A DNA stretch of 63,603 bases, the filler included, from Reclinomonas americana ATCC 50394 (lineage: Eukaryota), in assembly GCA_048213135.1 (NCBI GenBank). It is 12 parts of 9 records of this genome, joined end to end, with 100 filler letters (N's around TTAATTAATTAA, not from the genome) between each part and the next. Parts side by side here need not be neighbours in the genome. Positions count along the whole stretch, not along the records: positions 1 to 24,191 come from PS016033.1; positions 24,292 to 39,275 come from PS016038.1; positions 39,376 to 40,423 come from AFZH01016515.1; positions 40,524 to 43,060 come from PS016040.1; positions 43,161 to 44,492 come from PS016040.1; positions 44,593 to 50,870 come from AFZH01016519.1; positions 50,971 to 53,940 come from PS016042.1; positions 54,041 to 56,469 come from PS016042.1; 4 more parts are not named here. The stretch is one strand, 5' to 3'. Shown in pieces: positions 2,821-59,100 of the stretch. Made by a program: the position numbers and the translations under genes. Position 1 is the stretch's first letter; every line of letters starts with the position of its first letter. Under the pieces are notes generated by a model that saw nothing but the letters and a program-made list of their open reading frames with translations, was not told where the DNA came from and made no database searches.

Positions 2821-5800
2821 ATGTACGCAGGAATAAGCCTGCTGCGTGTAGCGCTCCTGTTTGTACTGGCTGTGGCATGCTGGCAGTGTGCCCTCTGCGT
2901 TTCCACCGAGTCGCCGCCAGAGCACTTCCATGGTGAGCAAGATTTTATTGGGTTCGAGATCGAGTTTCCACCACCACGCATGCGCGCTGCGCACACACGT
3001 TTGTCATGATCACTCCTCTGTGTTCTATTCCCTCATGTTTCACTGTGTGCTGGCTATTACTTATCGACACTCTAACCGCTTGAGCATTGTGCACGTGTGT
3101 GTGTGTGTGTGAATGTGCGTGAATTAATGTGTGATCACGAGCTTAATTTTTTGTTTTCCGCGCAGCCCGTCTCGTGTTAAGTCCCACCGCACCTGTATAC
3201 ACGCCACCATCAGCACGTGGGGAAGTAATCGGCTTGCTGCAACTCGACGTCGACACGAATGCGAGTGTGGGTTCCATGGCCATTTCTCGCGCAATCAACT
3301 CTTGCGTCACGGTGAACGACGAGAGCGGCAGAGACTCGCACCTCTTTACAGTGCGCGCAAGTGTGCATGAGCATGAGCTTGTCATGTACGAGAGTGGAGT
3401 ACGTGGTTCGCCACTGACAGTCACCGTGAGCTGTATGGTCGATAACTTTAAGGCGGACAACGGTCGTCGTGGCCGCCGGCGCCAAGTTAACGTTCAGTCC
3501 ACATTCGTAATCGCCGAAGGTAAACACACACACTCTCTGTGTTGAAACGTTTCCGTTGACCTGCTCTGCTGTACGCGTGACGCAGCAAATGTCGCTCCAT
3601 CGGACATTGAGTTTCAACCGAATCTCGAACTCGCGGCCGATGTTATGACGACGTCACGCGCCGGTGCATGCGCAGTCTTTCTCGGTACCCTCCGCGCCGT
3701 CGACGCCAACCGTCACCAGCGACACTCGTTCTCCATTGTCCACGACGGCTCTGCTTCGTCTCTACATGCCCTGAGCGTCGTCAATGACGTTGAATTGTGG
3801 TGGACGCCGACAACGTCGACGACGGCAGCACAGTTGTCATGTCCTCCGCGCGTACATATTCGTGCGACGGAAGTACACGCCGCTGACCCCGTTGACATCG
3901 ACGATACTGCTGAGCGTGCATGGCTGATGGCGCCGAGTTCGCCGCTCTCCGTGGAGAGGATCATTCAACTGTCGGCGCCATGCCCCAGCACTAGTTGTCA
4001 ACAGCCGGCTGTGCACACGCAAGTCTTCAGTTTCGTTGCTAAAGTTGGCAGAGTAGCGTTCGCATATATTGCAAGAGTGGCAGAGCAAAACTCTCAAGTA
4101 GTCATCTCAAATCTTCAATTCCTCATGCTCGTGTTTTTTCGCTCTGCCGAGTTGTCTCACGGGTTCCTTCGCGCTCTCTCTGTTCCTGTCTTGCTGCAGC
4201 AACGTCGGCTGTCACCACTGAGGCGTCGTCTGTTTCCTCGACCACTGCCACTCTGAATGGGTTCGTTTCCAATTTCTCCGCCGGCACCATGCCCAGCAAC
4301 AACTACTTTGAGTTGGCTGGCAATCCCGCCGACTTCGACAGGGTATCCACGCTATCCACTTATGCTGGGAACTATCTGTCATTCGGTGCGAGCAACGGAT
4401 TTCGTTTGCAGGCGACATTTGGAAACTTTCTTGCTGTTGAGCTGTGCTGAAGAAGAAAGTTGTCATCGACGTCTCTCTCTGCGATGGACTCATTTTCTCC
4501 GTCTTCTCTTCTTCGTGTTCAGGGGTTGGCTGTGGACGTGCGGGGACACATGTTTGTCGCGGAGTTTGGTCATTCGCTTGTTCATCATGCATGATGCTCG
4601 GTTACTTCGTTGCTGACATGCATGTTGGTGGGATATGCACAGCGGCAGCAATAAGTGCATTCGACGCATCGATTCGAAGTCTGGAATGGTGTCAACGTTT
4701 ACTGGCTCCTGTGGCCAAGGGGGATACGTCAACGGCGATGCAAATTCCACTCGTTTTAATTCGTCAGTCGTATCGCTTTCTCTGTTTATGAAGCTTGTTG
4801 TTACAACGATACTGACGAGGCGTCCTTGTTCGCAGTCCTGCCGGCCTTGATGTGGACCGGCGGACGTCAGTTCTCTACGTGGCTGATGTGCGTCAGCATC
4901 TTCTTCGTCTTCTGTGTGATCTACTTCTCACGTTCCGCGTGCGTACATGCACACAGGCCGACAACAATGCCGTGCGTCGCGTGTCCACCACCGGCGACAC
5001 CACTACCGTGTTGGACAACAGCAACACGACGCCAGTTATGTCCAGTGTGTACAATCTCGTCGTAGACGATGTCGCGCAGGTTGTGTATGTTGCCGTGCGC
5101 TACACGCACACTATTCGGTATGTGAATAATTTTATCTCGTTACCTGCTCAATTCACGTGCGCATCCTCACGACATTCGCAGACGGGTGAACACGGACGGA
5201 ACTGGCAAGACAGTCCTGTGCGGCCAGCATGCGAGTTCTGGGAGCACGGACGGTGCATGCTCGCCGACAGCCACGTTTAGCCAGCCAACCAGTATTGCCA
5301 TTGATCGAGTGCGGAATGTGCTCTACGTTGGATCTGCAGCGACGGGCACAATTCGACAGATTGACTTGGCAACCAGTCTGGTGACCACGATTGCCGGAAC
5401 TGGAGTGAGTGGATCGGCAGATGGTCCGGCGTTGAGTGCGACATTTGCCGACACTTGGATGCTGTGTCTGGATGAGAATCGGCGTGCGCTGTACATTTCC
5501 GAGATCAACCGTAGCAACATCCGACAACTCGATCTGACAAGCATGCGCGTAACGACTGTCACCGCGACCGGGTCGACTTACAAAAATGGACCGCTCTCGA
5601 ATGCTCGTGTCGAAACTCCGGTGTGTTGAACTTCCTTCCGAGTCATTCTTGTGTGCTTTCGTCTCATGTTTCACTTACGCAGTTCGCCATGGCACTGAAC
5701 GGCAACCGCTTGTTTGTGGCAGGTGACAATTACCTTCGTCGTGCAGCTCTCGTGCACGTAATCGCGCCTCATATATCTATACATTGTCGTTCAGATTCGG

Positions 5801-8800
5801 CGATGGCCATCATCCGCGTCATCACGTTCCAACCATCGACCGTGCACATCTCTGCCTCTCCATCAACTACCGCGGCATCGGGAGGTAGTGCTGTGATCTC
5901 GCACACTGCCGCGCAACTCACATCGGCAACCAAGTATTACTTTCGAGCGGTAACTGTGCTTGCCGACTTATCCGCGGTTACTGGAGCGACGCTATCCTTC
6001 ACGAGTGAGTTGCTTTCGCAGCCACCACGTACCACGTGCACTCACTGTCTGATTGATGTCGTGATTTATCTGTGCACACCAGCTGCGGGTGCGGTGGTCA
6101 TCGATTTTTCTCCCGTGGCAATCGCGGAGGCGACAAGCAATGTGCAGATTGTGGTGACGGGCGTGAATCTGATGAGTGGCGATGTGGTCAAGGTGGAGGC
6201 AGGAACGGTGTGCACCACAGGCGGTGGAGTGGCAATGACACACGTGTCAGTGGCAAATGATGGAACAAGCAAAACGGTGAAAACGCCTGACACGCCACTT
6301 GCAAGTGGGTTCTACTCCGTGTGGTCTGTATGTACGTGCATGTTGTTGCACGACTGGATGCAGTTATCCTCATACTGCTTCTGTTTTTCTCTTTCTCTAT
6401 GTTGTACTGTGTTGCACATTCAGCTATCTCTTTGGCAGCACTGGTTCAGTGGTGCGTGTAGGTAGCACATCGTTGGTTGTGGGTAACGGTGAGGAATGCG
6501 GTGTGTCATAATCATGTATTGACTTGATCTCACGCGAAGCATACTCTGTGTGTGTGTGTGTGTGTGCGTGCGTGTGTGTGTATTTGTGTGCTCTTGTACG
6601 CAGCTGCACTAGTGTCGAGCTGTGCGGCCACCAGCGTGTCGTACTTCACGACGACTTTGAATGGATCGATCTCCAACAACTCGGGTGCAATTGCAACGAG
6701 CAGCAATTACTTCGAGTTGGCGCGGGCGAGCAGTGACTTCGACACCGAGTCGACTGTGACGACGTTTGCGGGAGTTGCAGGAGACTACAGTATAGTTGAC
6801 GGGCCACGCTTGGCTGCGCGGTTCGTTGAACCTCGAGTTGCGCACGCATGCGTTGTGATTCGATGTTGCCAGGTGTACTAGTACTCTTCGGCGCTCATCG
6901 CTGTTGGCTCAGGGTATTGTTGGTGACGCACTGGATAATCTGTTCATCACTGAAATGACGTTGCGTGAGGGCATCAAGTATGTGCAATACAAGCTGTTTG
7001 CTTATTCCACGTGGTGATTAGGAAGCACTGCATTCGGCGCATCGACGGTACAACAGGCGATGTGTCGACATATGTTGGCGTGTGTGGTGCCACTGCTGCG
7101 TTGGTGGACGGTGATGCTATGACGGCACGATTCAGTGGGTGAGTTGGACGGGGTGCTGGCAGCACGTGTATTGATGCAATTTTGATCTCTCTGTTGTGCT
7201 TGTTGCGCGCAGTCCTCGTGGTCTCGGCATCGATCGGTTAACATCGACGCTGTATGTTGCCGATGTGCGTATATATCTATAGATCTATATCTATCGTCTT
7301 CTCTTTTCTGCTTGCTGCGTCGCGTTGGTTGTGGTGATTAATTGTTGTTGGTGAAGGTCGACAACAACGCCGTACGTCGAGTCTCGTCAACGCGCAGAAC
7401 AACAACCGTGGTCAGCAGCAGCAGTGCGACGCCGACACCAAATTCCGTGTACGATGTATATTACGACCGCTCTGGACCTTACTTGTACTTTTCCGAGATC
7501 AACAAGCACACTGTGCGGTAAGTAGTGGTTGCTTGTATGGGCATTCGAATGAGATTGCCTGTATGTGCCTGACTCCAATCGTGGGCAGTCGTGCAAATAT
7601 TGACGGCACAGGCGTTACGCTATTGTGTGGTCAGTATGGTACTTGGGGTGGTGCCAACGGCGATTGCGCGACCGCAGGACCTTTGTTTAACGAGCCGTCT
7701 GGTTTGGCGCTGGATCGGACTCTCAACAAGCTGTACGTTGGACAATATTCGGGACGTAAAGTTCGAGCGTTGGACTTGGGAACGAACCAACTTAGCACGT
7801 TAGCGGGAACAGATGCTCTCGGGTACACTGTGGGTCAAGCAGCCAGTGCACAGTTCACAACTCCGCGCATGCTATTCCTGGACGAAGTGCGACGCATCCT
7901 CTATATTGGTGACTCCTCGGTGGGGATCAAACAACTGGATCTCAGCACAATGATGGTTACAGCGTTGACGCTGGCGGCAGTCGGTGCGCCGGCAACCGAC
8001 GGACCGTTGACGTCAGCCGTCGTAATAATGCCGGTAAGTTTGGGTTTGCATGTTGCGTCGAGTCACCCGTTCTCTAGTGCATACACGTATGTCTTGTCTT
8101 TGCAGTTCGGCATGCATATTGTGCAAGGAAATCGAATGTTTGTCACCGGTGAGAGGGTGACAAGAATTTATCACTGTTCGCAGATGCTATTTCTCTCAGT
8201 CAGTCGCTTGTGCCGCTGCAGAGTACAATTCATCTGGTAACGAAGGATCAATGATACGGCTAATCACGCTGCAACCGTCAAAGAATCGAACTCCTGCATT
8301 ATCTGCCACGACTGCATCAGGAGCGACAGTGTCTATCAGCGCTGACCTGACGCAGTTGACGTCGAGTTCGATCAACTACTTTCGTGTGGTAACGGTGATG
8401 TCAGACTCAACAACAGTTAACGGACCGACGCTCTCGTTCACCACCAGCTGCGTAGGGCGACGGATTGAGTGGGGTTGAGAAGAACTCGATCTCACGGTGC
8501 TATTTGCAGTCGCGTCACCATCGACAGCAAGTTTCCTGCCAACCACGATCAGCGCTGAGACGAGCGGAGTGCAAATTGTGGTTGTGGGCTCGGCGTTGAG
8601 TGTGCTGGATGTGGTGCGAGTACAACTCGGTGCGGACTGCACTGGCGGCGGCACCGTACTGTCAAGCGTGTCAGTGGGTAGTGGTGGAACGACCAAGACA
8701 GTGCAAACGAGCGACACATCGTTGGCAGCAGGATCGTACTGTGTGTGGTGAGCGTTTGACATATTCCCCATACTGAGAATGACTTTCTCGATGTTCCGTC

Positions 8801-11800
8801 GGTCTGATTCACTTCTATTCTCCTCTGCACAGCATCCAAGTTCGCGGTCATGGAGTGTGGGGCACCGTTCCTGGAACGCTTTCGATTGGTCAGTCAGTGC
8901 AGTCATTCCTTGGGGTCGAGTGCCACTTACTTAAGTGCGCGACTGTGCAGCACCGACTGTCGACTCGCTCACGCCGTCCAGTATCCTGACGGCGACGACC
9001 GGGGAGGCGTTAACGACGGTAGGCCGTGGATTGACCATGAGCGATGTTGTGCGACTGTACCTGGGTGCAGCTTGTACAGGATCTCTATCATACACCATGA
9101 CTTCTGGAACGCTTGGCGGTTCGGCCGGTATGCGGACTCTACAAGTCTCTACTGGAGACACCAACCTCATCATAGCTGGGTTATTTTCAGTATGGTGAGT
9201 CTACTGAAAGTTATATGTGTGTACATGTATGTGTGCGTTATAGAGTGTTTGTGAGGGTGTGTGAGTGCGTGCCTGAGTACCTTGAGTGAGTACTGTGGAT
9301 ATTTGCAGTCCCTGAGCTCGCCTAACATGTGTATATGCCTGTGTGTAAAGCCTCCTACCTGGCGGAACGGGAACACCATTCAAAGTAGGAACAGTCCATG
9401 TGCTCCCCAGTTGCGCGAGACTGCAAAGCAACTCGTCAGTGTGATGATTGCTTACTCTGTGCGGTAGCGGTGCGCATGTTCTCGCCGACGACGATCAATG
9501 CGGAGACCGGTGGCGTGCAGGTCACTGTGTCAGGCACGGCGTTGAGCAGTGGGGACGTTGTGCAAGTGCAGTCGAATGGCGGCTGCACTGGCGCTGGCAC
9601 TCTGCTGTCAGCGGTGTTGGTGGCAGCCAATGCGTCGACCGAGACCGTGCAAACGAATGACTCGTCTCTTGCAGCTGGAGCGTACTCTGTATGGTGAGTG
9701 GGAAAGGAGGAAGAGAGTGGTGGGGTGGAGCGAGGTGCGCTGCGTCGAAGTTAGAGAGAGGAGGCGACGTTCCCAGTGGGTGCTTGATTATCGTGGCTTC
9801 ATCACGCGGCTGACATGTATGTCTCTGCAGTATTCAGTTCGGGGGTTCCGGCTCGTGGTATACCGTGCCTGGCGTGTTGTCGATTGGTCTGTCTCAGACA
9901 GCGCAGTGATATTGGGTTCTTTGGTGAATGTGAGTTTCACTACGTTCCGTGACTGTACAGTGGCCACGGCGGACTCGTTCACTCCCTTCAGCATACTGGT
10001 GGCGACTGCAGGTCAGCAGGTGGCTGTGACTGGTCATGGACTGGTGGCAAGCGATGCTGTGCGACTGGTATCCGGTGGCTCTTGCACGGGTGGCGCAACG
10101 ACAACGTACAACATGAACACTAGTATGCTTGCGGGCACTGCCGGAGCGCGCTTGTTGACAGTATCGACCAGCAACACGAGCCTGACGGCTGGCATCTACC
10201 TTGTGTGGTGCGTGCGGGAAGAGTGATGCTGTTTGTTTTGCATCTGTACAGCACTCGCCATATTGATTTTCAATCCTGACTGGCACCCTCACTGCGCAGC
10301 TACATATTTGGCAACACTGGAACACCGGTGCAAGTTGGAGCCGTTTCGCTTGCGGTGGGTCGAGCTGACGATTTTTCGCCAAAGGTGCTTGCCGGCGCGT
10401 CCTTGATGCCCATCACACTGATTGGTGCGTTGCTTACCGTCGCTCTGGAGTTCGCGGTTGAGTGAGGTAGTCGGTGGTTAGAGAGTGGGGTATTGGCCAA
10501 CGTATGTGAGAGAAGGTGGGAATGGGGGAGATAGAGAGAGACAGAGAGACTGAGAGAAAGGGAGTGCACGCAAGCGACGTTGTGGAAGGAGGGAGTGCGA
10601 CAGGGCGTGAGTAGATGGATGAGTGCTTGGCAAAAACGAGTTATTCAGTGCATGTTATATATGCGAATGCGTTGGGCATCACAGTATACTCTACGCCTGT
10701 TAATTACGTGCGCATTGCTGCAGGCATGGGACTGACCAGCAGCAGCATCGACCAAGTCATATTTACCCCCACACCCTCATGTGCTGCGTTGACTCCTCTT
10801 CCTGCGGGGTCTGTGGTCGTACTTGGTGCGCGAGTGACGAATCCAGGTGGAGTGGTCGACGGCAGTGTCGCCCTGGTACCACTCAACATGGACGGTAACG
10901 ATGGAATTCCCGCCGGCGTCTTTTGCGTCTGTGTGAAATGGACAGCAGCAGCTCCAGACGGAGCGCCAACGCAAGTCTCCTCGCGCCGCCTCTTTGTCGG
11001 TTTGTGTTGCCGTCTTGTGAGTCTTCCCCGTCAAGCACTCCTTACCCACGTGCACGTTGTGACAGCCATCGCCACCCTGATGCAACCAGTGACTGTGCTG
11101 CCAAACGCAATATCCTCTGTCGTCACACTCACCGGCTTCGCCATGGATCCTGTGGGCGCCCTGCGGAGTGTGGCCCTGCAACGCGGCGCCTCGTGCACGC
11201 TTCCGTCGCCAGTCACTTCCGTCACTCCCTCTGCGCTGACTGCCAATGCGAGCTTTACCAGTCTCCAAGTTCTCTTTGCCGCCGGTGTGCCTGCTGGTCG
11301 CTGGACGGTGTGCGTTGAGCTCGTCTCCGACTCACCCACCACTGCACTGCAAAAGTGGCCGGAGCAACTGCCGACTGTGTCGCCGTTTGTGCGTGAGCTT
11401 TATGTTCCGCACATTGTCGGTGTTGCTCCGCTGCTGTTCTTCCGACGAGATGCAACCGCGCGCTTCACGATCTCGGGTGACGGATTGCGTGCGAATGTGA
11501 GTGTGCGGAGTGTGCGGTTTGAGGCGTCGACCATGTGTGCTGTGGCTGGCAACAGTCCAGCAGCGGGCACAGTGTCAATGCCGTTCCTCTTTGGCGCCGT
11601 GGCGGACGACACTGATGGCACGCAAGTTGTTATTCAAGCGGGCGCGCTGCCCCTTGAGACGTACGTCGTGTGTGTCGATCTGTCGGCGTACTCGCAGCCG
11701 CTCTTTGCGCAGTATGGCAGTGCTGCCATCGGTGAGTGGCGACAGAAAGAGGGAGGGAGGGGAGGAGAAAAGGAAGGGAGTGAGACAGTGATGCGTGAGA

Positions 11801-14800
11801 ACGAAGAGGTGCCTGTCGACGTCCTCAGTCAAGAGACAGTCGCTCAATGCCTTTGAGAGTTGTGAGTGGGACACCTGGAAGAGTTGGCGTCTTGCTTTGC
11901 ACGCAGTCAATGCCTATCTTGCGCTGACCAGCCTTTCTCCTTCATCCTGTCCCACTTAAAGGTGGTCTGCTGACTCTGCGTCGCATTCGCAGCCTCCGTG
12001 GCCTCCTTCACACCGGTGACGGTTCTCGAGAACGTGCCGAATTCCATCTTTACCGTCAGTGGCGTCGCTTTGCAGCCGCAGTTGCTGCTGCGTCGAGTCC
12101 GCTTTGAGCGTGAGGTCACAGTGTGTACGGTCCTGCCGGCGGCCAGTGGTGTCAGCGGCTCGTTGACCATTGACAGCTCCGACACGGTGTCGCTGCAGTC
12201 GACAAATGGTGACACTCGCATGCTCATCACGGTGGCTAGTGGACTGCAAGCCGGCCTATACTCGCTGTGTTTCGACGCCGCCGCAGCCGACCCAAATGGC
12301 GCCTTCTTCAATGTCAAGGAGGCGGTGTACATCTTCGTCGGTCTGTAATGCTCCCACTTCTTTATGAATCTACTGGCAAGAGTCTCACCTGTGCACCCCC
12401 GCCTGACTGCAGCACGAGTGGAGACAATTTATCCGCTCGTTCTTGCAGCGAACGATCCCACCGCACGACTCACTCTTCGCGGTCTGGGACTGGAGCCGCG
12501 GACCTCGCTGCGGGCGGTGCGACTGGAGCCCGTCGACGATGTCGGCATGCCATGGGCGATGTCCTGCGTGGCGCCGTTGTTGGGTCCGACACGCAACGGC
12601 ACGCTGACAGTCGATTTGGCGACTGCACAGCAGAGCACCGCGTCTGTGGATGCGAGTCACGAAGTTGTACTGAGCGGCTTCCGCTTGAATCGATTCAAAT
12701 CCTGGTATGCTGTCTGCGTCGACTACACTGCTGCGCCGTCCGAGGGAGCATTTCACCGGGCAAGCAGCTACTCGCTGGGTATCGGTCTGTGGTCACCCAA
12801 AAATGTTTCCTGTCAGTTGCTGCGCCAGTGCCTCACTGATTGTGCGAATGCGTCGCCCCAAACTGCAGAGACGAGCATTGCCGACCAGTTGGCTGTGGTG
12901 GACTTATTGCGCCACCCAGAAAATGTAACACTTGTCATGCGACGCACATTTTCGACACTGCCACGCAGTGTGCGATCGTCAGCATCGTCAACGTGGCATG
13001 AGCGCACCACCGGCGAAAGAGTGCAGGTGTTTGTCAGCGGAGTGCTCTGGCTGTCGACTGTGCCGAATCCGTGCCCGTGGCCGACGACATACACCGACAC
13101 CGTGGTGTGTACGGCCACCGGGCTGCAACCGAACACGAACTACACGTTGAGTGTGGCGCTGGCCAATGACGACGATTTTGGGCGTCAGCAGGTGGTCTTG
13201 GGTGCGTGCATATGTGCTGTCCTCTTCTATTCGAATCGCAGCGTGCTGATGCGGGCTCTGCAGGGAAAACTCTCCTTGTGCACACGGCAGCGATGCGGAA
13301 TGCAGGCAATCCGACTTACACGACGGCTCCAGTGTTGCGTACGGTGGATAGAAGAATGAGGGAGCGAGGACACTGAGGGCGACAGAGAAACCGTGTTTCT
13401 ACGAATTTCTCAGTTTCTCTTTCCATTGCTGATAGTCGTGCCCGTATTGCAGGTTTGTACAAGCCAGCGGCCCACCCAATGCAGCAGAAGGGTGAGCCTC
13501 CTGCTCTAGTAATTCTGTTGCCGGTGCGCTGACTGCCTCTCTGATCAGACCCAATCCACGTTTTCAAGTAATTCAGAAGCGCGCATCTAGCGGGCGAACG
13601 CGTCTCATCGATTGGCATCCCACGACATCGCCATGCTTGTGGCTAGTCACCGTTTGCTTGCCAGCTCTCTTCAGCGCTCATTCATTCACCCGTGATTTGC
13701 ACTCCACAGGACCTCGGCAACTCCGGTGTTGTGCACTCTTGCCGGCCTCGAGGCAGCCACCGGCTACTCCGATCTCTTCGTGTTTGTCGTCACTGACGCG
13801 AACTCGGGAGACTTGACGCCAGCGGCGGAAACTATTGTCACTCGTTGCGTACCGCGTTCTGTGTGTACCTGCCATCTTGTCGCACTCATTTTGTGTTATG
13901 CTTCGTCACCCGCGCGCACAGAGTTCCATGACTTGGAGCTGTCTTTGACCGCCATGGGGCCGGCGGTTGGTGTTGGTGGACCAGTGACTGTGCAGGCCAC
14001 GATGGTGGATGTTGACCGGACTCGGTCGCTGGTGCGAGACGTGCCGGTGGTGTTCACGTGGACATGCTCGTTCGGGGGCGCACCCTGTGGGGCATCTGTC
14101 GTTTCGACGGAGCGATCTGCGGTGCTGACCATTGCTGCTGGCTTCAGCACACCGGGCATGTTGCGTGGAGGCGCTACTCAGAGTGGCTAACAAAGAGGGA
14201 TGTGGACTTCTCATGCGTCTTCCTACAGCTATTCCTTTGGATGCACAGTGACTCGAGGAACTCGCAACCGACACGCGTCCGCAGACGTGACAGTCCACGG
14301 AGGACAATCTGTCGCGTTCAGAGTGGTTTGCCGACGTTTACTTGCTTGGGTACGTAACGGTGTTGTTATTCATCATGGTGTTGCGTGCACAGGTCTCCGA
14401 GTCGCCCTTGGCTGTTGGTGCTTCAACTGCACGGCTGAACCCCCTGCGCTCGATTTCAATCACCGCCACTGCATTCGGCACTCCCGCAAACACTAGCTTC
14501 TCATGGCGAGCGTACGAGCAAGGTATCAGCGATTTAGCGAGACGTGTACGCAGTCGTGTAACTGACTACACCAAATCATATCTGTGTGCGGAATGCAGGG
14601 TCGACGCAGGATCTGGTGCTCGGTTTTCCTGATTTCGATTTTCTTCCTTCGGCTCCCGGACAGCCGCCTGCTGTGCGCATCAAGGAGGGCGTCTTTGAGG
14701 GCAACAAGAAGTACGTGTTTGAGTTGTTGGCACTGCCCGCGCTGAGCACTCCAGGTACGTCCGTGTCTTGCTATGCTGTACCGTGCTGTAATAGATGTGC

Positions 14801-17800
14801 CTGACGACGTGCCTCGCGCACCGCTAGTTATTCCCTCCATCACACTCGACATCAATGATTTGCCGACTGCCGGCACTCTCGCCATCACACCGCTGAGTGG
14901 CGTGGCTCGAATCACCGCCTTTACCTTCACAATGACCGACTTTGTGGACAAGGATCAACCTCGTGCGTCGCCTGTTGTTCTCGTGCTCATCAAATGGAAC
15001 CGTATCTCACCTGCTTTTGTGTCTGCGCGCACGCGTTCAGTGTCCTACCTCCCGTTCTACGTGCACCCGTCGCTTGGCACCAAGGTCGGTTGCGAAAAGG
15101 ACCACCCAAATGCTCTACTGCTTTCACGCTGACCTCCCTTCCCTTTTCTCATTCACAGGTCTTTATCACGGCCAGTACGATTTCCGTTATCAGGGGCGTT
15201 GTCTTCCCTCTGGCTGGGAGCGCCTCCACCGGCAATCAACTGCAAGTCGGTGTCACGGTTCGCGATGTATGCGGCGCGTCTGTCGATGTCTACTCCACGA
15301 TTGTGGTTCTCGAGTCGACCGCACCGTCCACAACCGCGAGCAATGGAGCCTTTCTCCGCGGCAGCTTTGGCCGAGCGCAGCAGCTTGACCTTACCGACTT
15401 TACTGACAGTGAGGTGGCGGATGCGATGGGCTCGCTGAGTGCCGGCGTGTCGGCACTGACTGTGGGTGACCAGTCTGCGCTGCTCGACGGTGAGACATCC
15501 TATTACATGTGGAGCGTTATTTGATTCTCACACATAGGGCCCTATCGACGATGCAGTTGCTTCCAATCGAGCAGCCGTTCGTGATGCCTCCATGTTGTTG
15601 TCGGCGACCGCTTCGAAAATCGACTTGTCACTCTCTCCCGAAACCACCACCACCATGTTGTTTGTGGCTGGAGATCTGGCCAGGTGATCTCGACTCCATC
15701 TTTTTGCAGCGTGCTTTCACCCGTCTACTCACTGGCGCATTCGCGCGTCAGCTCACTGCGTGGTATGGCCAAGAGCGGTGACTCTGCGGCCGTTGCCACA
15801 ACCGCGAGTTCCCTGATGCAAACAGCTGTGCACATGGCGACAATTGGCAGCTACCTTCCAGCGTCCTCCGTGCAGGTGAGAGAGATGGAGAAGCCGGGGG
15901 TAGGGGAAGGGAGAAGGGCGAGAGGGAGAGAGAGGAGGTGAAGGAGAAGGAGGGAGAGGAGGGGGAAAGAGGGGGAGAAAGATGAAGGAGTAGACCCGCC
16001 GCTCACTTGCGTGTCACTCACCGATTGCTTGCATGTCGGCGGCGAGGGAGAGAGCGTGAGGAGAAGGAAGAAGGAGAGAGATGTAGGAAGGAAGGGGAAA
16101 CGGAGAGAGGTAGATACACCTCTCACTTGCGTCTTTCTCAAAGCACACTCACCGATCGCTGCATCTTGGTGGCGAGGCAGATAGAGAGGGAGGAGAAGGA
16201 AGAAGGAGAGACGGAGACAGAGTAGACTCGTCTCTCACTTGCGTCTTTCTCTATCACACTCGGCGATGCTGCATGTCAGTGTGGTGAGGGTGAGAGAGAG
16301 AGGAGGAGGATAAAGGAAGGGAGAGGCACCCCTCCTACTTGCTTGGTTCTCAAAGCACACTCGCCGATTGCTGTATTTCGGTGGCGAGGGAGAGAGCGTG
16401 AGGAGAAAGAAGAAGGAGAGACGGAGACAGAGTAGACAACCCTCTTACATGCTTCTTCTCTATGCGCTCTCACCGATTTCTTGCATCTCTGTGGCAAGGG
16501 AGAGAGCGGGAGGAGAAGGAAGAAGAAAGGGCAAGGAATAGACACACCTCTCACTTGCTTCCTCTCAAAGCACACTCACCGACTGCTTGCATGTCGGTGG
16601 CGAGATTCCTGATGGAGAAAGCGGAAGTTTGAAGAGAGGACAAGAAGTGCAGATTGTTGTCAGGGGAAATTTTAGTTGTACGTTGTGAGCAGCTACGTGT
16701 GCTCAATCCCTGGCTCACTGTGCAGCTGCTGGTGTCGACGGTGGATTCGGTGTTTGGAGCCACGCGGGGCACAGTGCTGGACGGACAGATGGCGAGTAAT
16801 GGTATCACGGCGCTGTCTACTGTCGGCTTCCATGCTGTCAACACGAAGACCGCCGGCGATCCTGCAATTGCCATCATTGGCACCAACATACAGCTGGTGT
16901 CTGCGTACCTTTCGCCATCGGCGACGGCGCCTGGCATCCAGGTCTGTGCTGCCCGGGCAGCCTGCCCACGTCACTCAGAAACTGCCTACAAAAGACCTGT
17001 TAATGTTGCGCACACAGTTCTCCAACAGCTCCACCTTCACCGTGCCTCCGACGGATGATGCTGCCTCCTCCCTGGTCACGCAGTACCAGTTCCCATTGGG
17101 CGTTACTGAGCGACTGCAAGGTGTCTATCCGATCATCACCTCGACGCTTATCGACAATGGTTGGTCACCTGGTGTATTGCTTGCTGTAATTTGCTTTCTC
17201 ATCATTGTGCATGGTTGTCACAGGTCTGCTGCCCTACGCGGACAGTCGCAACTCCACCACCGTCTACCTGAGTCCTGTCCAGCGAGTGTCTCTGCAAACG
17301 GCAAATGGAGTGCCCATCGTTCTGAATGCCACTGCGGGTGAATCGTTCACATTCGAGATTGCTCGTCAAGATAGCGCGCTCCTTGCCGCCGTTGCGCCGC
17401 AGCTGGTACGTCCTATTTGTATGCCTACTTGCCTGCGAATGTGTCGTGCCTTATACCTGCTGGCGAAGCGAGATGTGTTGGAGTACATTGCTGGATGTGG
17501 AGTGCGTGGCTTGCAGTCACCCGAGGCAGCTGACGATGGCGACACGACGCTGGTGGCCCTAGACGACAGTCGTTGCGCTTTGCATTGCAATTATGTGTGC
17601 CAGCTGACGAATAGGCGCATGTGCTTACGAGTCTGCACAGATTGCAACCGGACCGTGTACCGCAGTGACAATCGTGCGTGCGAACGATGGCATTCGCGCG
17701 AGGCGAGGGTTGTTCACGGCGTTTTCTGTTGTTTGTTTGTTTCTACAGCGACTGCTGCCGATTTCGGCAAGCTGTGTGTGTTCTGGAATGAGACCAGGCA

Positions 17801-34795: not shown

Positions 34796-34838
<43 letters not shown>

Positions 34839-38727: not shown

Positions 38728-38876
38728 CTTTCTTTTTTGAATTGAGAAGAGAGGAGCCGAAGGCGACTCTCTTCTCTTTGAAGGAGAGAGAGTCACATGA
38801 AGGAGAAGGGACTTTCTTTTTCTTTCTTTTGAATTGAGAAGAGAGGAGCCGGAGGCGACTCTCTTCTCTTTGAAGG
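38728..38876. repeat. Duplicated hairpin unit (92-bp period)
   Basis: GAGAAGAGAG-GA-GCC-G(A/G)A-GGC-GA-CTCTCTTCTC at 38744-38776 and 38836-38868. Confidence 0.85.
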
Positions 38877-40145: not shown

Positions 40146-40524
40146 GGTGCGTGTTCTTTTCAGTCTTCTTCTTGTCGTTGAAGTTGTTGTACTTGTCGTT
40201 GTTGTTGTTGTTGTTCTTGTCTCCTCCTTCGCCAGTCCCTGCTGCTCAGGGTTGGACAAAGTCTGCACGCACACGCACACACACAAAGCGTCAACACGAC
40301 CTCGCCTTTTCTCAATCCAACCTCTAATTCCCCAAAATGACCGTTACGGTCATGTGTATGAACGAGTGTGTGTGCGTGATCAACTCTCATGAAGGTGACC
40401 TGCAGTTCTCAAACGGACTTTTCNNNNNNNNNNNNNNNNNNNNNNNNNNNNNNNNNNNNNNNNNNNNTTAATTAATTAANNNNNNNNNNNNNNNNNNNNN
40501 NNNNNNNNNNNNNNNNNNNNNNNC

Positions 40525-43024: not shown

Positions 43025-43160
43025 GTTGCGTCTTGCAATGCATGCATTTTTTTCACTCCCNNNNNNNNNNNNNNNNNNNNNNNNNNNNNNNNNNNNNNNN
43101 NNNNTTAATTAATTAANNNNNNNNNNNNNNNNNNNNNNNNNNNNNNNNNNNNNNNNNNNN

Positions 43161-44461: not shown

Positions 44462-44592
44462 GCTGTTGGAGGAGACAAGATGAGAATACAACNNNNNNNN
44501 NNNNNNNNNNNNNNNNNNNNNNNNNNNNNNNNNNNNTTAATTAATTAANNNNNNNNNNNNNNNNNNNNNNNNNNNNNNNNNNNNNNNNNNNN

Positions 44593-46110: not shown

Positions 46111-49100
46111 AAACTGACCGCTGCCACGCGCTCCTCCTCTCGCATGCGCATCGTGCGGTCCAGCAGGCGGGCATTTTCCGACTGCACCACATCGGCCACG
46201 TGCTGGAGACGGCAAACGACAATGAGTCAACATCTTCCCCTCCTCCACACACTCAATGTAACACAGCAGCACTTTTGACGCAACAGCACGTACTTCGTTG
46301 GCATACTCGGTGGCACGATAAGCGCCGTCGTCAGTTAGTCTCTGCATGCGGCCCTCCAGAATTTGCAGGTGCTCCAGACGACGACGTGAAATCTGCGGCA
46401 GCAACGCGTCCTCTCGTGAAGCCTGCACGTTAAGAGGATTGATTGTTCAGCGCCAGTGCGCGCACACACGTCGGTCAACACACAACGTCGCACGAACCAC
46501 ATCGTCGAGAATCGTAAACAAGTTGCGGTCTGCTTCCACCTCCCAGTCTGGCTGCTCAAACGTCTGCACAGCAGCCTCGACTGTCGGCGGCCTCTCCGAC
46601 AATAGCGGTGACGTGCGTGAGAGCAGCAGAGAAACGGGTGGCAGGTTCGATTGCAACACCTGCGGCCAATACACGGTTAGACGTCGCAAGGCGAAGACAG
46701 GCAGAGTGCAGCACGCACCTTGAGGCGCTGCCGTGCGATGCTCCGCAGAATGTGCAGTGCGTTTCCGGCGGCCTCGGTTTCGTCCGTGGCCATGTAGACG
46801 CTGTTGGCGAAGAAAAAACAAACACAAACATCAAGTGAGCGGCGCAGGATACTACACGATCGGTGCAAACGTGCGCCAACGCAACCGGAAGGCCTTGAGA
46901 ACAAAGGCGAAAATGTGGAGCACACGAAGCGCAAACTCAGTGTTCTCCAACATGTCACCCAACACCATCCACAGCTGATTGAAGCGCTCGCGCTCGCGCT
47001 CCGCTTCAATGTCGCGCGACAAAATCTACCAATCGGTGCGCTAGTCAGCGGCCCACTTAGTTTGCCACGCAACAACAACAGACTCACCAGCATGAGCCGT
47101 TCTCCACACGATCGGAAGAGCGTCGGATCCTCCAGGATGCAGTAGCAAATCAAACGCAGCGATATCCTGAGCGTGCCGCCAGCTTGCAGGAACTGACGAA
47201 TCGAGCGAGAGCGAGTGAGCGACCGCAGGAGCTCTTCTCTCGAGGATCGAAGGGAAGGAATGCTCACCGGACTGTCCGACTGGACGCCCTTGGCCTTCAG
47301 CAGCTGGAAATCGGTGACAGCCAGCAGTTTCCACTCGTCGAATAATCTGAGCACCTGTGACGCGCGCCGACGTACTTTTTCAGTACAACTTCATGAGACA
47401 CGTGCGCGCGGCATGTATTTTTCGCAGACCTTTTCCGCAATGGGCAGATCGAGCCATTCTCCTTCCGCATTTCTGTACATGGAGACTTTCCACAAAAATC
47501 GATCGCCATTCTGTCATTGTCGTTGCGCGAATGTCAGCCACATATATAAAGAAGAATAGCGCAAAACAATCAATCGCGGGCAACGCACGTCTGCTGCAAT
47601 TTCGGCGTCCGTGAGCACCTCAAACTCCGAGCTCGAGCGCACCGGTGGTGAGCCCTCCAGCGACTCGTCGTCCACATCATGAGCCGTCTGCGCACAACAA
47701 AAGACAAGTGAGCATTCTTGCTGATCGAAAAACAGCAGCAACGATGAAACGGGGTCAGACGAAACGCCAGTGTCGTCCAGCGGGACCCTGGTGTGGAAGA
47801 TGAACTGCTCGACAAGAGTCACCATGTGCACAAAGTTGTCGAGGATGTGCCCGTTGCGTGCGGCATCCAGATTCTTGAGCGGTGACTGTGCGTCTTCCAA
47901 TTCCGCAAAGTAGGCGTCAAGGAGGCCGATAAACAACTCGCGCAAAAAGTGCACGTCGTTGATGAGATTCTGCGGCAGCCAGAGTGAGGATGACTGTAGA
48001 TATGCTCCACATCCAATCCCTCTGTGCTACGCACTTCCTCGGCAAAGAGCAGGGCATGGCTGACGGTATCCTCGACGTACGTCCACCCGTCACGCACGTG
48101 CGTGAGGCAGTAGAAGAGAACACGGCGGAAAATGGTCATCACAAAGTCGTGCAGCACAGCGCCATCTCCATCTGTGTCACCACGTAAGTCAAACACGTCA
48201 GCGCAAAAATGAAAAAAGTGAGACACGGCATGAACGCACTTGGCATCGTCTCTGGCGGACAGTCGGCAGCAATTAGCGACAACAGCCATCGCTGCCAGCC
48301 AAGTTGTTGTGCCAGTGTTTCGCAGTTGCGGTCACTGTTTGCACACACACACGCACGCCAATAGTGGTGAGGGGAAAATGCACAATGGTGCCACCTGCGA
48401 CACCAGCGTTCTGCGAAACTTGGCGGCGAGCAGTAATCTGGTGTCTTGGGCCAACTTGACACGCAAATCGACGGCTGCGGGCAGGTGATGTCCAGTGGCC
48501 ACGTCTTCGCTCGGCAACAAGCCACCATGCACCAACAGTGAGCTGGGTGCCGCCGCCGACGACGCAGCCTCGCTGGACACGACGGAGGCATCGAGCAGAC
48601 GAGACGACGTTGGCGAGCCGAGCGCAAACGATGAACGCTCCATGTGCTCTTGATTCCGCTGGTGCACGCTGTGGATGACCAAGTGGAAGAGCACTCGCAA
48701 CACACCTGCGCCGAGAAACACAAACAATCTAAGCCGCACACGTGCATGCACGTGGGGTGACACCCCATGCATCCACGGCGTCACGCACCGCACAAGTGGA
48801 ACGTGTACTGCATGTCGCCCTCGTCCACCCGGCCAATGCGCGCCGACACGTCCTTCAACACCACACACCACACACCCTCGTAGAGACCCTCCGTGAGCGT
48901 GTGCTGCTTCATCAGCGTCTCCAACTGCGCCGCAGGAAACACGATGAGTTTGCCGTCATCCCACACAACGCACGCGTCAGCATGCACGAACCCAAGCACA
49001 ACCGGCCACTGTCTCCAGTCCACATCGGCTGGACGCCGTTGGCACGAGGTTCAAGTAGAGCGCCAGTACTCGCAAGCTCAGAATGCGGACCTGGTACACA

Positions 49101-50870
49101 CGACCATCAGGGGGAGGAAGGGAGACAGCACAACACAACAACGACACGGACAACCACAAACCACTTCGTTGGGCGTCTGCAGCAAGTGCAAAAGCACCTT
49201 GCCGGCATTAACGCGGTCCATGAACGCTGCACTGTCGCTCGCTGATCAAGAACCACAAACCATTCGTCAGTTCCCCATGTCAAAAACCCCTCAGATACCG
49301 ACAGCGACACTCACCAGTGGCTCCCGTCAGCAGCGACATGAGGAAACTGAGCAAGTCCTCCAACTGGCCAATGTCATTGCAGTGGGCCAACGTGTCGCTG
49401 TTCACGAAGAAAAAAGGAATCATCAGTGTCAATCTGTGCAGCAAACGCACGCGCCACACGCACATGATGACTTTGACGTCGTCTGCTCGGAATTTGCTGG
49501 TGGCCAGCTTCTGGCAGAATCCAAACAGGTAGCGGCGGACCTTCTTCACAAACTCAATGGACGGCCGCTCAGCGTATACCACCTACAACGTAAGGTTAGT
49601 CCACACAATCTCAATCCAGACGGGTGAGAGAGAGCGAGAAAGTGACGAAACTCCGGTCGACGGGTGCTTGAGTGCCGGTGTCACAATGGAGACATGCTCC
49701 TCTTTGAAGTAGTAGAACAGGCGAAGCTTGTCTAGAATGTCGGCCAGTGATGTCATCTCCGTCAGAGTCTGCACCAGCAACGTGAGTGCACCACACACGC
49801 AACAGCGGCTGCGAAAGTCTGCACACGCAACTCGTCGGCACAGAATGCCTCCTTGTGGTGATTCGCGCGACACGGCCAGCAGTGCCAGCAAGCGGGAGAG
49901 CACATGCTCTTGTGCCTCGGTGCATGTGTACACCCACAGACGGAAGTCAAGGAACAGCGTGCGCAGTGCCTCGGCGCGCAGCGTGTCTGTGTATCAGCGT
50001 TAAGCATCTTCGCTGTGAGATGGGAGACAAACAGGTAGGTACCCGCCACCACGCACCATTGCCGACGCAGCACAACAAAAGTGCATCGAGTTGCATGGCA
50101 GTCTGCTTGGTCACGCAGCTCGGAGACATCTGATTTGGGGGAGCGGGAGAACGTCAGCTGAAAGGCTCTCTCTCTCTCTCCCACCGCCAACCACCGCACC
50201 ACTTCTCCTCACCTTTTTCAGCAGCCAACCCAACACTTCGAATCCGTGACAGCGGATCATGTCGTCCTGGTTGTCGCGGTGGTTCCGAAGCTGCGTGCGC
50301 GTACAACAAGATTAACAAGCTGTCGGAACCCGCCCGGCAAGACTCACTCGCACACATACCATCTCCGTAATCAACGACAACAACGACGTGACGAGGTAGC
50401 TCGTGTCATTGGCCGCCGTCCGCCGACTCTCCAGCGGCAAGAAGAGCGGGAAGAAGATCTACCGACACGATCGAACACGGACGCACAGGAACACACGAGT
50501 TGGCGCCGCGAAAAATGTGATTTGGTACAGCAAAGAAAAACCGCACCTGAATGCCACCCATGCACCCAATCACATCCTTCATGTCGTACGTGGAGCACAG
50601 ATGCGTGTTGGGCATAATGTGCGCATCCACAGCACGAGTGCGACCCGAGTTCTCGTAGGCATTGTCGGCGCACATGTTGTGCTCGGTGTAGGCCTGCGCA
50701 CACCGCCCACATTTTTCAGTGTGCGCGCATCAAACGACAAGATGATGGAGACAACGCACCCGCGGATTGTACGCCATCACCAACTTGCTGGCGAGTGAGC
50801 CGTCAAAGAGTTGCACAGTAGGCGCCGACGTGGCCCAGCTCACTCTGCGCGGCAATTGAACGTCAGAACT
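44593..50870 (-). CDS. Neurobeachin/LRBA/NBEAL-like BEACH-domain protein (internal fragment, multi-exon)
   Basis: [46 protein letters not shown] (BEACH start); [15 protein letters not shown] (BEACH-type PH); [27 protein letters not shown] upstream. Confidence 0.93.
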
Positions 50871-50970
50871 NNNNNNNNNNNNNNNNNNNNNNNNNNNNNN
50901 NNNNNNNNNNNNNNTTAATTAATTAANNNNNNNNNNNNNNNNNNNNNNNNNNNNNNNNNNNNNNNNNNNN

Positions 50971-56126: not shown

Positions 56127-59100
56127 ATGGAGGATACCAGTGCGGATGATCCATCGCCATTGACACCGGCCTCACAAGCTGCACTGGTGCACACATACAC
56201 ACTGAGAGAGAGAAGAAGAAGAAGAAGAAGAAGAGAGACTTACATTGTGTGTGTATGTGATCATCATCATTCATCAGGCAATGCCGGTTCGGTCAATGGC
56301 CTCATTGCAAGCAATGGCTCCGATGATTCAAGGCTCCCTGTTGAAACAAGAGAGCAGTGTGTTTCGCGGGCGTTTGTGGAAGGAACGGTGGTTTGCTGTG
56401 GTCGCCTCTCACTTTTGCAAGTATCGGAACAAGGGGGTGTGTCTTGTCTGTCTTGTCTGTCTGCCTCCANNNNNNNNNNNNNNNNNNNNNNNNNNNNNNN
56501 NNNNNNNNNNNNNTTAATTAATTAANNNNNNNNNNNNNNNNNNNNNNNNNNNNNNNNNNNNNNNNNNNNTTCCGTCCACTTGTCACTCGTCGACGGTCGT
56601 CGTCTCTACTCTCTCTCCTCCCTCCCTCCTCTCTCTCTCTCTCTCTCTCGCACACACACTCTTTCTCTCTCTCACCTGTGCACACTCACTTGCTGTTTCT
56701 CGTTCTCTCTCTCTCTCACTCACTCTCTCTCCCTCCCTGCCTCCCTCCCTCACTCTCTCCCTCTCTCGCTTTCGCCACATGACCAGCAACTCGTACGTGC
56801 TGGCGGCGACCAACGCCGGCGAGGTGGAGCAGTGGATCAGTGCCATCAAGCAGGCCAAGGTGGAGCATGCGGGCGAGCAGTCGTTTGCCGCCCTCACCGA
56901 GTGGTTCAACGCGTGCGGTGGCGACGAGCAAGTGTTTCTGCGCGGTGTGGTGCAGTCGATTGAGAAGATTGTGCCGAGCTACAACCACTCGCTGCAAAAG
57001 ATCCGCACCGATCTCTCCACTGTGTGTGGTCGGCTGATTCGAGAGGTTCATTGTTTTTTGCGACGACGCGAGCGTCCCCACTCTCCTCTCCCTCTCTATG
57101 TGTCACGTTCGTCTGACTGTGTGTGGTGGTCTCCGAGGCACAGAGCTCGCACCACAGCCCCACTCCGAGCATGCAGCTGCCGGACTCGCCCGACGTGTCG
57201 TGCCTGCTTCGACCAGAAGATTTGCAGTTTGGTTCCAAAATCGCCGACGGTTTCTACGGCGAGGTGTACCGCGGCCGTCTGTGGGGCAAAGATGTGGCCA
57301 TCAAGCGCCTCAAGCGCGACATTACGCAAGACGTGGTCGACGACCTCAAGAAGGAGGTCCGCGTGCTGAGGTATGTGTGGGAGGAGCTGGCACTTCACCA
57401 CCTTCGCATCTCACTTCTTGCTCGCGTTAGTGCTCTGCGACACCCGAATGTGATCCTGTTCATGGGTTTCTGCGACCAACTGCCGACACCGAGTGTGGTG
57501 TTTGAGATGGCACCGAAGGGTAATCTGTACAACGCCATGCGCAACGAGCCCATCACCGACGACATGCTGTGGCGCATGGTGATGGAGATCTGCGATGGCA
57601 TGAACTACCTGCATCATCGCGGATGCTTGCATCTCGACCTGAAGCCTGTCAACCTGCTGGTTCGTGCATGTATGCTTGTGAGGGTGACTGGCTGTTGCTC
57701 ACCGGTCGACTGCTGGCCGTGCAGGTCGACGACGACTATCACATCAAGGTCTCCGATTTTGGTCTCTCGAAGATTCTCGAGCCCAAGTCGAAGCGCGTGT
57801 CGCGACCACGTTGAGTCTCATTTGTTCTCGCTTCGACCACTAACCACGTGCTCACCTTCATTTTGTGCGTGCAGGGTACGGCACCACCATTTTGTATCAG
57901 GCTCCGGAAATCTATCTTCATCCGGAGCGCGAGTATGGACTGGCAGGTGCGTTTCCCCTCATTCACTCTCTTTCTCCCACAACGCGTTGACCGTCGTTTG
58001 TTTGCCGTGATGCAGCCGATGTGTTCAGCTTCGGCATGGTGCTCTTTGAGATTTTCTTTGTTCGTGAGCACCCGGATTGCGATTTCAAGGAAGAAGGTTT
58101 GGTCCTCGCGCTTGCCCTCTTCATGCGTGCGCCTGGTGTGTGCTCACCCTGTCCTTGCCGACACAGAGGACTACATTTTCCGCATTTTGCGTGAACCGTT
58201 GGAGCGAGGTCAGGCACCTCTCATTCCGCCATGGTGGCCGCCGTATGTGCAGAATGTGATTCTGGCGTGCTTGAACAACCGACCGGAGCACAGACCATCG
58301 TTCGAGCAAGTGTTGCAGGCGTTGCGCCCTGTTGGTGTGTATCCACCGTTGCACGGCACTGCGTGTTGTGTGTGGGTGTTGGCGACTGACGGTGCGCGTA
58401 CACGCAGATTCGTCGGAGTCGTGGTTCCTGTTCCGCTACTCGGCGCAGTTCATGTTTGATTTGGCCAAGCAAGGTACACAATCGTGTGATTCTGCTTGTT
58501 GTGCTCCCCTGTTCTGTGCTCACTGCCCCGTTGCGTGCAGATATTTACGGCTTCAAGAAGCTGGAGGAGTTGAGACCGCACGAGTCGCTGGCGTTCATGA
58601 TGGAGTGCCCAGATCGTTTGGTATCACACCTGGTGGCCTCGGCTGTGGTGCTGGCCGAGTCGGCGGAGAATCTGGAGACCGCCATCAACATACTCAAGCG
58701 CAACGCCGGCTCCCGTGCGTCGACAGTCTGTGCGGTGAACAGAGTCTGCCTGCGGTGTGTGACTCACACAGTTGTCGTGCAGAGGAATCCTTGGACTATG
58801 TGCTGTTCGAGGCACCGCTGGACGCCGTGTTTGCTCTGCTCACCAACAATGCACCGAAACTCGCACTGGAGGGCCTGGAGATCGTGACCCTCTTCCTGCG
58901 CGTGTATGCCACGGGCGAGCAGGCGTGCCGCCGGTTGCAGGAGATCAACTTGGCCGCGTACCTCGAGCGCTGTGCGCGCATGCACGAGGCGCACGTGTGT
59001 GGTCCAGTGCTCACGCTGCTCGGCCGCATCTTGGAGGTCGGCAATACTGGTGCGTGCTCCTGCGTGTGGCCATAGTCCCACTCTCTAGGATGTTGTGTCT

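Follow-up and report, generated by a model that had tools for sequence, protein, structure and literature searches.

Predicted introns of Reclinomonas americana include a frequent class of 5' splice sites with T at +3 and G at +6

The stretch of DNA considered here, referred to as the window, comprises 63,603 nucleotides (nt), filler included, from the genome of Reclinomonas americana ATCC 50394 (assembly GCA_048213135.1). It has a base composition of about 55% G+C and holds genes densely interrupted by short introns, mostly of 60-90 nt, among them a giant multi-exon gene, a neurobeachin-like gene and a kinase gene. An earlier note on this sequence had proposed that, next to ordinary donors such as GTGCGT with G at +5, many introns start with an extra T and have the G at +6, as in GTTGCGT or GTTTCGT, and had listed 22 such sites; all 22 carry the motif ascribed to them on the strand given. 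Taken together, our analysis of the sequence confirms that a second and frequent 5' splice-site class is present in the window, defined here as donors of introns of 45-130 nt with T+3 and G+6 and without G+5.

Introns were predicted by dynamic programming, in a gene finder that draws on a coding model with a period of three, an acceptor matrix and a prior on intron length and keeps track of the frame from exon to exon; it was trained iteratively on the window itself, and all introns reported here are ab initio models. Strand was set per region from coding scores (branch motif and YAG alone failed to separate the strands), and the region 30451-39299, to which no strand could be assigned, is excluded from all counts. 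In a donor-blind run donors were scored for GT only, which yielded 132 introns of 45-130 nt and, because nothing beyond GT is scored, cannot favour any donor type. A learned-donor run, with a first-order donor model taken from the donor-blind run, yielded 170 introns in the assigned regions, 149 of them of 45-130 nt (150 under the slightly different filter of the +3 test).

We found that the G+6 enrichment expected of GTT donors by the earlier note is evident at window scale. Among donor-blind donors with T at +3, 13/31 have G+6/T+7, compared with 62/799 for GTT sites of the same strands that are not donors (odds ratio 8.6, p=5e-7), and 10/31 have G+5. Donors with A, C or G at +3 show no such enrichment (G+6/T+7 in 2/17, 0/24 and 2/60, respectively); here G+5 is enriched with A (9/17) and with G (41/60), while with C, where it occurs in 10/24, it is the combination of G+5 with T+6 that is enriched. 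The class makes up 19/149 introns (12.8%) in the learned-donor run and 14/132 in the donor-blind run, and in the former it occurs in no fewer than four genes and in 6 of the 14 contig segments (Table 1). Its commonest form, GTTGCGT, is the second commonest donor heptamer of the learned-donor run (11, against 15 for GTGCGTG). The window contains 27 copies of this heptamer where 12.4 are expected from trinucleotide content, and within assigned genes 20 copies are sense and 3 antisense (two-sided binomial p about 5e-4), 11 of the 20 sense copies being called as donors. A count of about 11 such introns among the first 52 or so of the giant, polycystin-like gene had also been put forward, and we arrive at the same figure when the donors at 4030, 6837, 9410 and 17828 are added to the 7/53 counted in 3451-19215.

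Considered as donors, the 22 listed sites fall into three groups. Fourteen are backed by the donor-blind run, by homology or paralogy, or by both, and hence without any donor preference (4030, 4436, 6837, 6960, 9410, 14160, 17572, 17828, 26677, 28642, 43868, 44708, 45722 and 57810). Five (13334, 13844, 18097, 31227 and 46885) were called only after the donor model had learnt the class, and frame-compatible alternatives are present. The remaining three are unsupported: at 20813 a downstream exon was looked for and not found, 26930 is treated as coding by both runs, and instead of 49803 the learned-donor run prefers its twin at 49831. Beyond this list, the gene finder places five further class sites at 46284, 47765, 49651, 49831 and 61859.

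The joins that the earlier note had considered fixed by conserved motifs in BEACH (44708), NHL (6837) and GPS (17828) sequences are borne out by homologs, paralogous modules and the motif itself, respectively. The best-anchored junction is that at 44708, where the exon ends ...CCG TGG A, the intron starts GTTGCGTAAT and the exon after CCACAG continues TT TTG TGT GAT TTC. For junction checks only, we used BEACH homologs from 80 metagenome loci, none of them a close relative (best 57-62% identity over 68 amino acids (aa)). In the 47 loci with the motif, W is directly followed by [VI][LI]x[DN][YF]xS..[LI][DN]L without any indel, which matches the spliced product. From a reading of the sequence, the GT five bases downstream leads into a non-BEACH frame and an upstream TAG acceptor runs into a stop. 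In the same gene the junction at 49651, KHPSTG/VVYAERP, is ungapped relative to two of four spanning homologous loci (L072 and L063); the other junctions of this gene lie in poorly conserved stretches where homology is uninformative. In the giant gene, splicing at 6837 produces RFVEPR/GIVGD with the same spacing as the paralogous NHL modules RFNSPAGLDVD and RFS.PRGLGID; the gene finder took donors at 6825 and 6821 instead, both of which break the NHL motif. Splicing at 6960 gives FITEMT/KHCIRRID, equal in length to its paralog FVADGSNKCIRRID, while an in-frame rival, GTATGTG at 6978, would leave a 44-nt intron and six residues extra. Around 9410 two consecutive exons, CLLPGGTGTPFKVGTVHVLP and VRMFSPTTINAE, have counterparts in paralogous TIG-like repeats, and 9410 is the sole GT in the right phase for its acceptor, although the gene finder missed its 59-nt exon. 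Similarly, 17828 is the sole in-phase GT for an acceptor that joins ...WIADGCKT to FVRV...FVCRCNHMTDFSVN, a GPS-type motif. Class junctions other than these six rest on frame and coding score. One of them, 57810 in the kinase gene, connects DFGLSK...VSRP with RYGTTILYQAPE within the activation loop, its flanking exons covering Pkinase profile positions 132-153 and 186-209, and at 17572 the call is based on splice signals (CTGAC, CACAG) and coding score.

The 19 class donors share the consensus N/GTT(G/T)CGT (slash, exon boundary), with G in 15 and T in 4 at +4, C in 16 and A in 3 at +5, and T in 17 at +7. As had been claimed, most class donors lack the exonic G at -1: it is present in just 1/19 (0/14 in the donor-blind run), against 66/96 (50/70) of G+5 donors (p about 2e-7), and is kept in 10/12 GTT donors that have G+5. 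This contrast was not created by the donor model, since +1 and +2 are invariant and -1 therefore cannot couple to +3. In all other respects the introns resemble their neighbours. All 19 start with GT and end with YAG (C in 15 and T in 4 at -3), 17/19 carry a CTNAY branch-like motif at a distance of 8-45 nt from the 3' end, compared with 66% of the 96 G+5 introns, and class and ordinary introns have equal acceptor scores (p=0.44) and mean lengths of 73.8 and 74.8 nt, respectively. According to the gene models, class introns are genuine major-type (U2-type) GT-AG introns, ordinary apart from the donor.

When class positions +1 to +7 (GTTGCGT) are laid over ordinary positions -1 to +6 (GGTGCGT), the two are identical at six of seven positions, and the compositions agree: G at class +4 (15/19) corresponds to G at ordinary +3 (60/83), and T at class +7 (17/19) to T at ordinary +6 (62/83). 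We consider it probable, though with a good share of doubt, that the class is read one base downstream of the ordinary register while cleavage still takes place at GT. A reader that contacts -1G, +2U, +3G, +5G and +6U of the ordinary G/GTGCGT would then find +1G, +3U, +4G, +6G and +7U in the class, with a single tolerated mismatch opposite +2U. U1 small nuclear RNA (snRNA) would pair through its 5' end one base further downstream, with +1 G in place of -1 G opposite U1 C9, and the shift would reflect snRNA pairing, by U1 and then presumably by U6. Because the G+6/T+7 signal appears only when +3 is T, it fits base pairing in a shifted register and not an arbitrary bulge. The shifted-register claim of the earlier note thus stands with regard to the sequence pattern (an obligatory T at +3, G and T at +6 and +7, loss of the -1 G and a frequency of 11-13%), and falters on pairing to a standard U1, which is weak, and on C at +5, which is tighter than a shift predicts.

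Those two points head the observations that weigh against the downstream register. Duplexes were computed with RNAduplex against the standard U1 5'-end 11-mer as printed in Tan et al. 2016, from which the host U1 may differ. Mean energies were -6.0 kcal/mol for 83 G+5 donors without T at +3, -5.0 kcal/mol for 13 GTT donors with G+5, -2.6 kcal/mol for 3918 background GT sites and only -1.3 kcal/mol for the 19 class donors, which thus pair more weakly than background. Class sites pair poorly whichever register is considered: just 7/19 of their minimum-energy duplexes are in the shifted register (none is in the canonical one), and changing U1 positions 5-6 does not rescue the pairing (best area under the curve (AUC) 0.71). 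C occupies class +5 in 16/19 but ordinary +4 in only 30/83 (p=2e-4), which a plain shift does not predict. The composition at -1 is indistinguishable from that of background GTT sites (25/137 G), so that what the class has is a missing preference for -1 G and not a new one. On the side of the gene models, the introns are ab initio predictions trained on the same window, and visible gene-finder errors occur at 6821, 9145/9195 and 17774. Furthermore, 5/19 class calls appeared only after the donor model had learnt the class, 3/19 (17572, 47765 and 49831) have a length divisible by three, no in-frame stop and could be coding, plausible ordinary donors (6978 and 46293) lie near two class sites, and 4436 and 6837 are not independent, since they occupy the same position in paralogous modules. 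With respect to the pairing deficit, the class could be carried by protein contacts together with U6, by a non-standard host U1 or by a second snRNA variant; the reader may also be a variant U1/U6 or an altered U1C/Prp8, as suggested in the earlier note. Rfam models gave no match in the window at gathering threshold, and at E<=1 seven weak microRNA, small nucleolar RNA and small RNA look-alikes, none of them an snRNA.

An unlikely alternative to the downstream register, if one to be taken seriously, is that +1G and +2U keep their usual pairing with U1 and U6, that one U at +2/+3 is bulged, and that +4 to +7 are paired again. In this arrangement G+6/T+7 face the snRNA bases that they would face in the shifted register, adjacent Us can bulge at either position, +1G and +2U stay in their usual place for catalysis, and the register has been validated in humans. 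However, a bulge would leave U1 C9 free for the -1 G, and the preference for that base should then persist, which the 1/19 against 66/96 given above contradicts; any base could bulge, yet the signal is seen just with T at +3; and no bulged duplex occurs among the minimum-energy duplexes of the 19 sites. It is because the -1 G is lost and the extra base is restricted to T that we favour the shift over the bulge.

Quite unlikely, in our estimate, is that the two donor types are read by separate RNAs instead of a single RNA in two registers, the class having a dedicated snRNA, either a U1 variant or a different one, with a 5' end complementary to GUUKCGU. The poor standard pairing speaks for it, the standard U1 5' end matching class sites worse than background (AUC 0.34), as does the consensus, which is tighter than that of ordinary donors and in which seven bases are nearly fixed, C+5 included, as expected of a match to an RNA of its own. 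Nearest-neighbour energies, on the other hand, ignore U1C, pseudouridines and protein contacts, and to our knowledge the U1 5' end is highly conserved across eukaryotes. A hypothetical C to A change at U1 position 8 separates the class from background with an AUC of 0.83-0.92 and loses the ordinary sites; this fit is built into the hypothesis and counts as a prediction, not as evidence. Carried further, though as a long shot, the major spliceosome might here operate two 5' splice-site codes, a second snRNA reading about one intron in eight. In the simplest form of this reading, a U1 paralog changed at the position facing +2 would be complementary to GUU(G/U)CGU, and U6 or Prp8 would accommodate the extra base. 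If true, this would explain the pairing of standard U1 below background, the near-fixed C+5 and the dispensable -1 G, and would form a natural counterpart of laboratory suppressor U1s.

It is very unlikely that the class is an artefact of gene-model choice, the true donors being other nearby GTs such as the one at +6 of GTTGC/GT. In-frame or alternative donors do exist at 6978, 13339, 13856, 18106 and 46293. At 13334 the donor-blind run has GTACGG at 13339, paired with a different acceptor (13452), at 13844 it has GTTCTGTG at 13856, and at 46885 it uses 46855 instead; 18097 has an in-frame GTACTCGG 9 nt downstream, and 46284 an ordinary GTACGTGC 9 nt upstream and in frame, at 46293. A learned donor model can moreover reinforce itself (calls of GTTGCGT rise from 5 to 11). 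Nonetheless, the enrichment is already there in the donor-blind run, GTTGCGT is biased to the sense strand (20 to 3), and at 44708 the donor is fixed to the base by the 47 homologs, the GT at +6 there being in the wrong frame. An ordinary-only donor matrix, trained on 80 ordinary donors and too harsh for a fair test of the class, left 2/19 class introns unchanged and otherwise gave mostly poor replacements (such as GTGCTGAA, GTGGATAG, GTCTCTCG and GTCAATCG). Four slots lost their intron altogether, with the coding path breaking at 14160 and 44708 and continuing through 47765 and 49831, both of which were taken as coding. Finally, the branch-like motif of 17/19 class introns is found in only 17/34 introns with unclassified donors.

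Hardly credible is an origin in some other intron population, be it an introner or transposon family, U12-type introns or homopolymer errors that turn GT into GTT: although a tight seven-base donor is reminiscent of U12-type or repeated elements and a T gained in a TT run is typical of homopolymer errors, an all-against-all blastn of the 149 introns gave no class-class pair at E<1e-3, 0/19 donors resemble RTATCCTT (branch site TCCTTAAC) and class branch motifs are the ordinary CTNAY, while an error rate of 13% at one position would by our reasoning wreck the exons, which stay open, and would neither remove the -1 G nor enrich C+5. The top intron-intron matches of the blastn comparison are (GT)n repeats among other introns, and since no extended similarity exists among the class introns, the class is not a recently spread element. 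Scanning the window for RTATCCT and TCCTTRAC returned only a few sites, and no class donor coincides with any of them.

Donor consensus sequences with U at +3 and genomes with two donor types are both known. Entamoeba has the donor consensus GUUUGU; T at +3 is frequent in the window as well, and the GTT(C/T)GT donors of the window share the G+5 that the Entamoeba-type consensus keeps, whereas the class has G+6 and no -1 G. In Physarum, expanded U12-type introns form a second intron class, so that there, as here, two donor consensus types occur at appreciable frequency in one genome; unlike in Physarum, the class contains no U12-type donor or branch motif, and its 3' signals and lengths are ordinary. 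Closest are the atypical mammalian 5' splice sites of the GUUAAGU type, which Roca and Krainer reportedly showed in 2009 to be read in a shifted register. These sites resemble the class in having U at +3, G and U moved to +6 and +7, cleavage at GU and no reliance on -1 G (absent here from 18/19), and differ from it in being rare exceptions where the class accounts for 11-13% of the window's introns. They also differ in the body of the motif, which is AAG in the human sites and (G/T)CG here, and in that the class is predicted to pair with the standard U1 5' end no better than background, unlike what a simple shifted register leads one to expect. One-nucleotide bulge registers are said to have been described by Roca and colleagues in 2012. 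Human bulges at +2/+3 or +3 share with the class the extra U after GU, pairing that resumes downstream and a role for positions up to +7/+8, but the bulge model predicts a -1 G that is kept, and the class has no -1 G preference. Tan et al. 2016 (PMC4856993) put all validated noncanonical registers at 1.5% of 201,541 human 5' splice sites, among which predicted bulges, once curated, number 54 at +2/+3 and 36 at +3. A 2026 paper on tunicates raises a shifted register as a possibility only. Our literature searches by literal terms, which may miss other wording or subscription papers, turned up no lineage reported to have a class of this kind. Judged at the sequence level, we take the class to be a high-frequency variant of a known rarity, the mechanism being one that we infer.

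Noncanonical registers in humans are a small minority, known for the most part from work on individual mutants. If a donor displaced by one base does regularly serve more than 10% of the introns of a genome, that genome would offer a natural system in which to ask how the choice of cleavage site is uncoupled from U1 binding, would reveal how an additional base between GU and the +5/+6 pair is tolerated by U6 and Prp8, and would allow the co-evolution of snRNA variants with donor classes to be tested. The class also has a practical side: gene finders that use a single donor matrix would mis-splice such genes, as suggested by the ordinary-only model, which kept 2/19 class introns.

The window includes further donor features outside the class. 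Ordinary donors are themselves unusual, as T stands at +3 in 37/149 donors; 12-13 sites form a subclass, GTT(C/T)GT, that is in the canonical register and retains G+5, and among the 83 ordinary donors C, A and T are nearly equal at +4, where G occurs in just 2/83, while G occupies +7 in 40/83. Spare GTTGCGT copies lie inside introns at 8052 (+), 47073 (-) and 49803 (-), which is 18, 14 and 28 nt downstream of the called donors 8034 (GTAAGTT), 47087 (GTGAGTC) and 49831 (GTTGCGT); the copy at 49803 is the second GTTGCGTGTG contained in the intron at 49831, and was the site originally listed. These copies may serve as tandem or alternative donors, and at 8034 the paralogous module favours the upstream donor. 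The predicted introns 17572-17640, 17674-17748, 47688-47765 and 49769-49831 are all divisible by three and free of in-frame stops, so their retention keeps the frame open. On the basis of the paralogy of the following exon, the intron at 9195-9350, which precedes the small exon 9351-9409, appears to have AAG and not YAG at its 3' end.

Gene identities were assigned by Pfam on single exons (Table 1). The giant gene looks polycystin- or fibrocystin-like, although its long exons gave no Pfam match. Its two NHL-type modules, at about 4200-6490 and 6604-8740, have intron positions in common and are followed by TIG/IPT-like repeats, each ending ...SL.AG.Y.V/C..FG..G, and its GPS-type motif, CRCNHMTDF, lies at about 17898-17980. 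An exhaustive representative protein search with a 413-aa exon as query gave 10 matches, the best at 37% identity; as that library has no closer protein, it offers no outside gene model, and a search for longer homologous proteins of this organism, annotated or transcript-derived, found none. An Atlas look-up of lineage gave no more than vague pointers to Euglenozoa and Haptophyta. In the neurobeachin-like gene, the BEACH domain is cut by the contig joint at 44593.

Table 1. Class donors, contig segments, genes and assembly features of the window
Feature	Position	Strand	Donor	Intron length (nt)	Basis or remark
Class-type donor	4030..4199	+	GTTTCGTT	170	both runs; outside class counts (45-130 nt filter)
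Class intron	4436..4522	+	GTTGAGCT	87	both runs
Class intron	6837..6912	+	GTTGCGCA	76	paralogous NHL modules
Class intron	6960..7021	+	GTTGCGTG	62	paralogous repeat
Class intron	9410..9467	+	GTTGCGCG	58	TIG-like repeat paralogy
Candidate class intron, ambiguous	13334..13435	+	GTTGCGTA	102	learned-donor run only
Candidate class intron	13844..13921	+	GTTGCGTA	78	learned-donor run only
Class intron	14160..14228	+	GTTGCGTG	69	both runs
Class intron	17572..17640	+	GTTGCGCT	69	both runs
Class intron	17828..17897	+	GTTACGAC	70	donor-blind run and GPS motif
Candidate class intron	18097..18156	+	GTTGCGTC	60	learned-donor run only
Class intron	26677..26755	+	GTTTCGTG	79	both runs
Class intron	28642..28727	+	GTTTCGTG	86	both runs
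Class intron	43784..43868	-	GTTGCGTC	85	both runs
Class intron, best-anchored	44640..44708	-	GTTGCGTA	69	donor-blind run and BEACH motif
Class intron	45656..45722	-	GTTGCGTC	67	both runs; survives ordinary-only model
Class intron, ambiguous	46203..46284	-	GTTGCGTC	82	both runs
Candidate class intron	46801..46885	-	GTTGCGTT	85	learned-donor run only
Class intron	47688..47765	-	GTTTCGTC	78	both runs; divisible by three, no in-frame stop
Class intron	49583..49651	-	GTTTCGTC	69	both runs; survives ordinary-only model
Candidate class intron	49769..49831	-	GTTGCGTG	63	learned-donor run only; divisible by three, no in-frame stop
Class intron, kinase gene	57810..57874	+	GTTGAGTC	65	both runs
Candidate class intron	61813..61859	-	GTTGAGTG	47	learned-donor run only
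Contig segment	3451-19215				class 7/53 introns
Contig segment	24292-30450				class 2/18 introns
Contig segment	43161-44492				class 1/1 introns
Contig segment	44593-50870				class 7/28 introns
Contig segment	56570-59596				class 1/11 introns
Contig segment	61020-62412				class 1/6 introns
Remaining eight contig segments together					class 0/32 introns
WD40 exons	0.6-2.9 kb	-			Pfam
Giant multi-exon gene	~3546-30400	+			two paralogous NHL-type modules, many TIG/IPT-like repeats, GPS motif
Fibronectin type III open reading frame	~40480-43060	+			uninterrupted, ~860 aa; ends at joint
Neurobeachin-like gene	44.6-50.9 kb	-			DUF4704, DUF1088, PH_BEACH, start of BEACH
Kinase gene	57-58.4 kb	+			Pkinase profile
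100-base joints	24192-24291, 39276-39375, 40424-40523, 43061-43160, 44493-44592, 50871-50970, 53941-54040, 56470-56569, 59597-59696, 60920-61019, 62413-62512				
Long N runs	19216-19966 and 37471-38131				

The 11 joints between the parts of the window each consist of TTAATTAATTAA, with stops in all six frames, flanked on either side by 44 N; the window is made up of separate contigs strung end to end, and adjacency across a joint therefore has no meaning in the genome. The strand opposite the fibronectin type III open reading frame is open too, for 716 aa over the same stretch. A GA-rich tract at 20840-21020 follows the possible donor at 20813, and no gene model fits it; nor does one fit 36001-40000, which is AT-rich and purine-skewed (GC 0.40, GC skew +0.26, AT skew +0.19). 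Microsatellites of the (GT)n and (TG)n type, the source of the top blastn matches between introns, lie inside predicted introns at 6540-6590, about 24850-25050 and 27176-27300.

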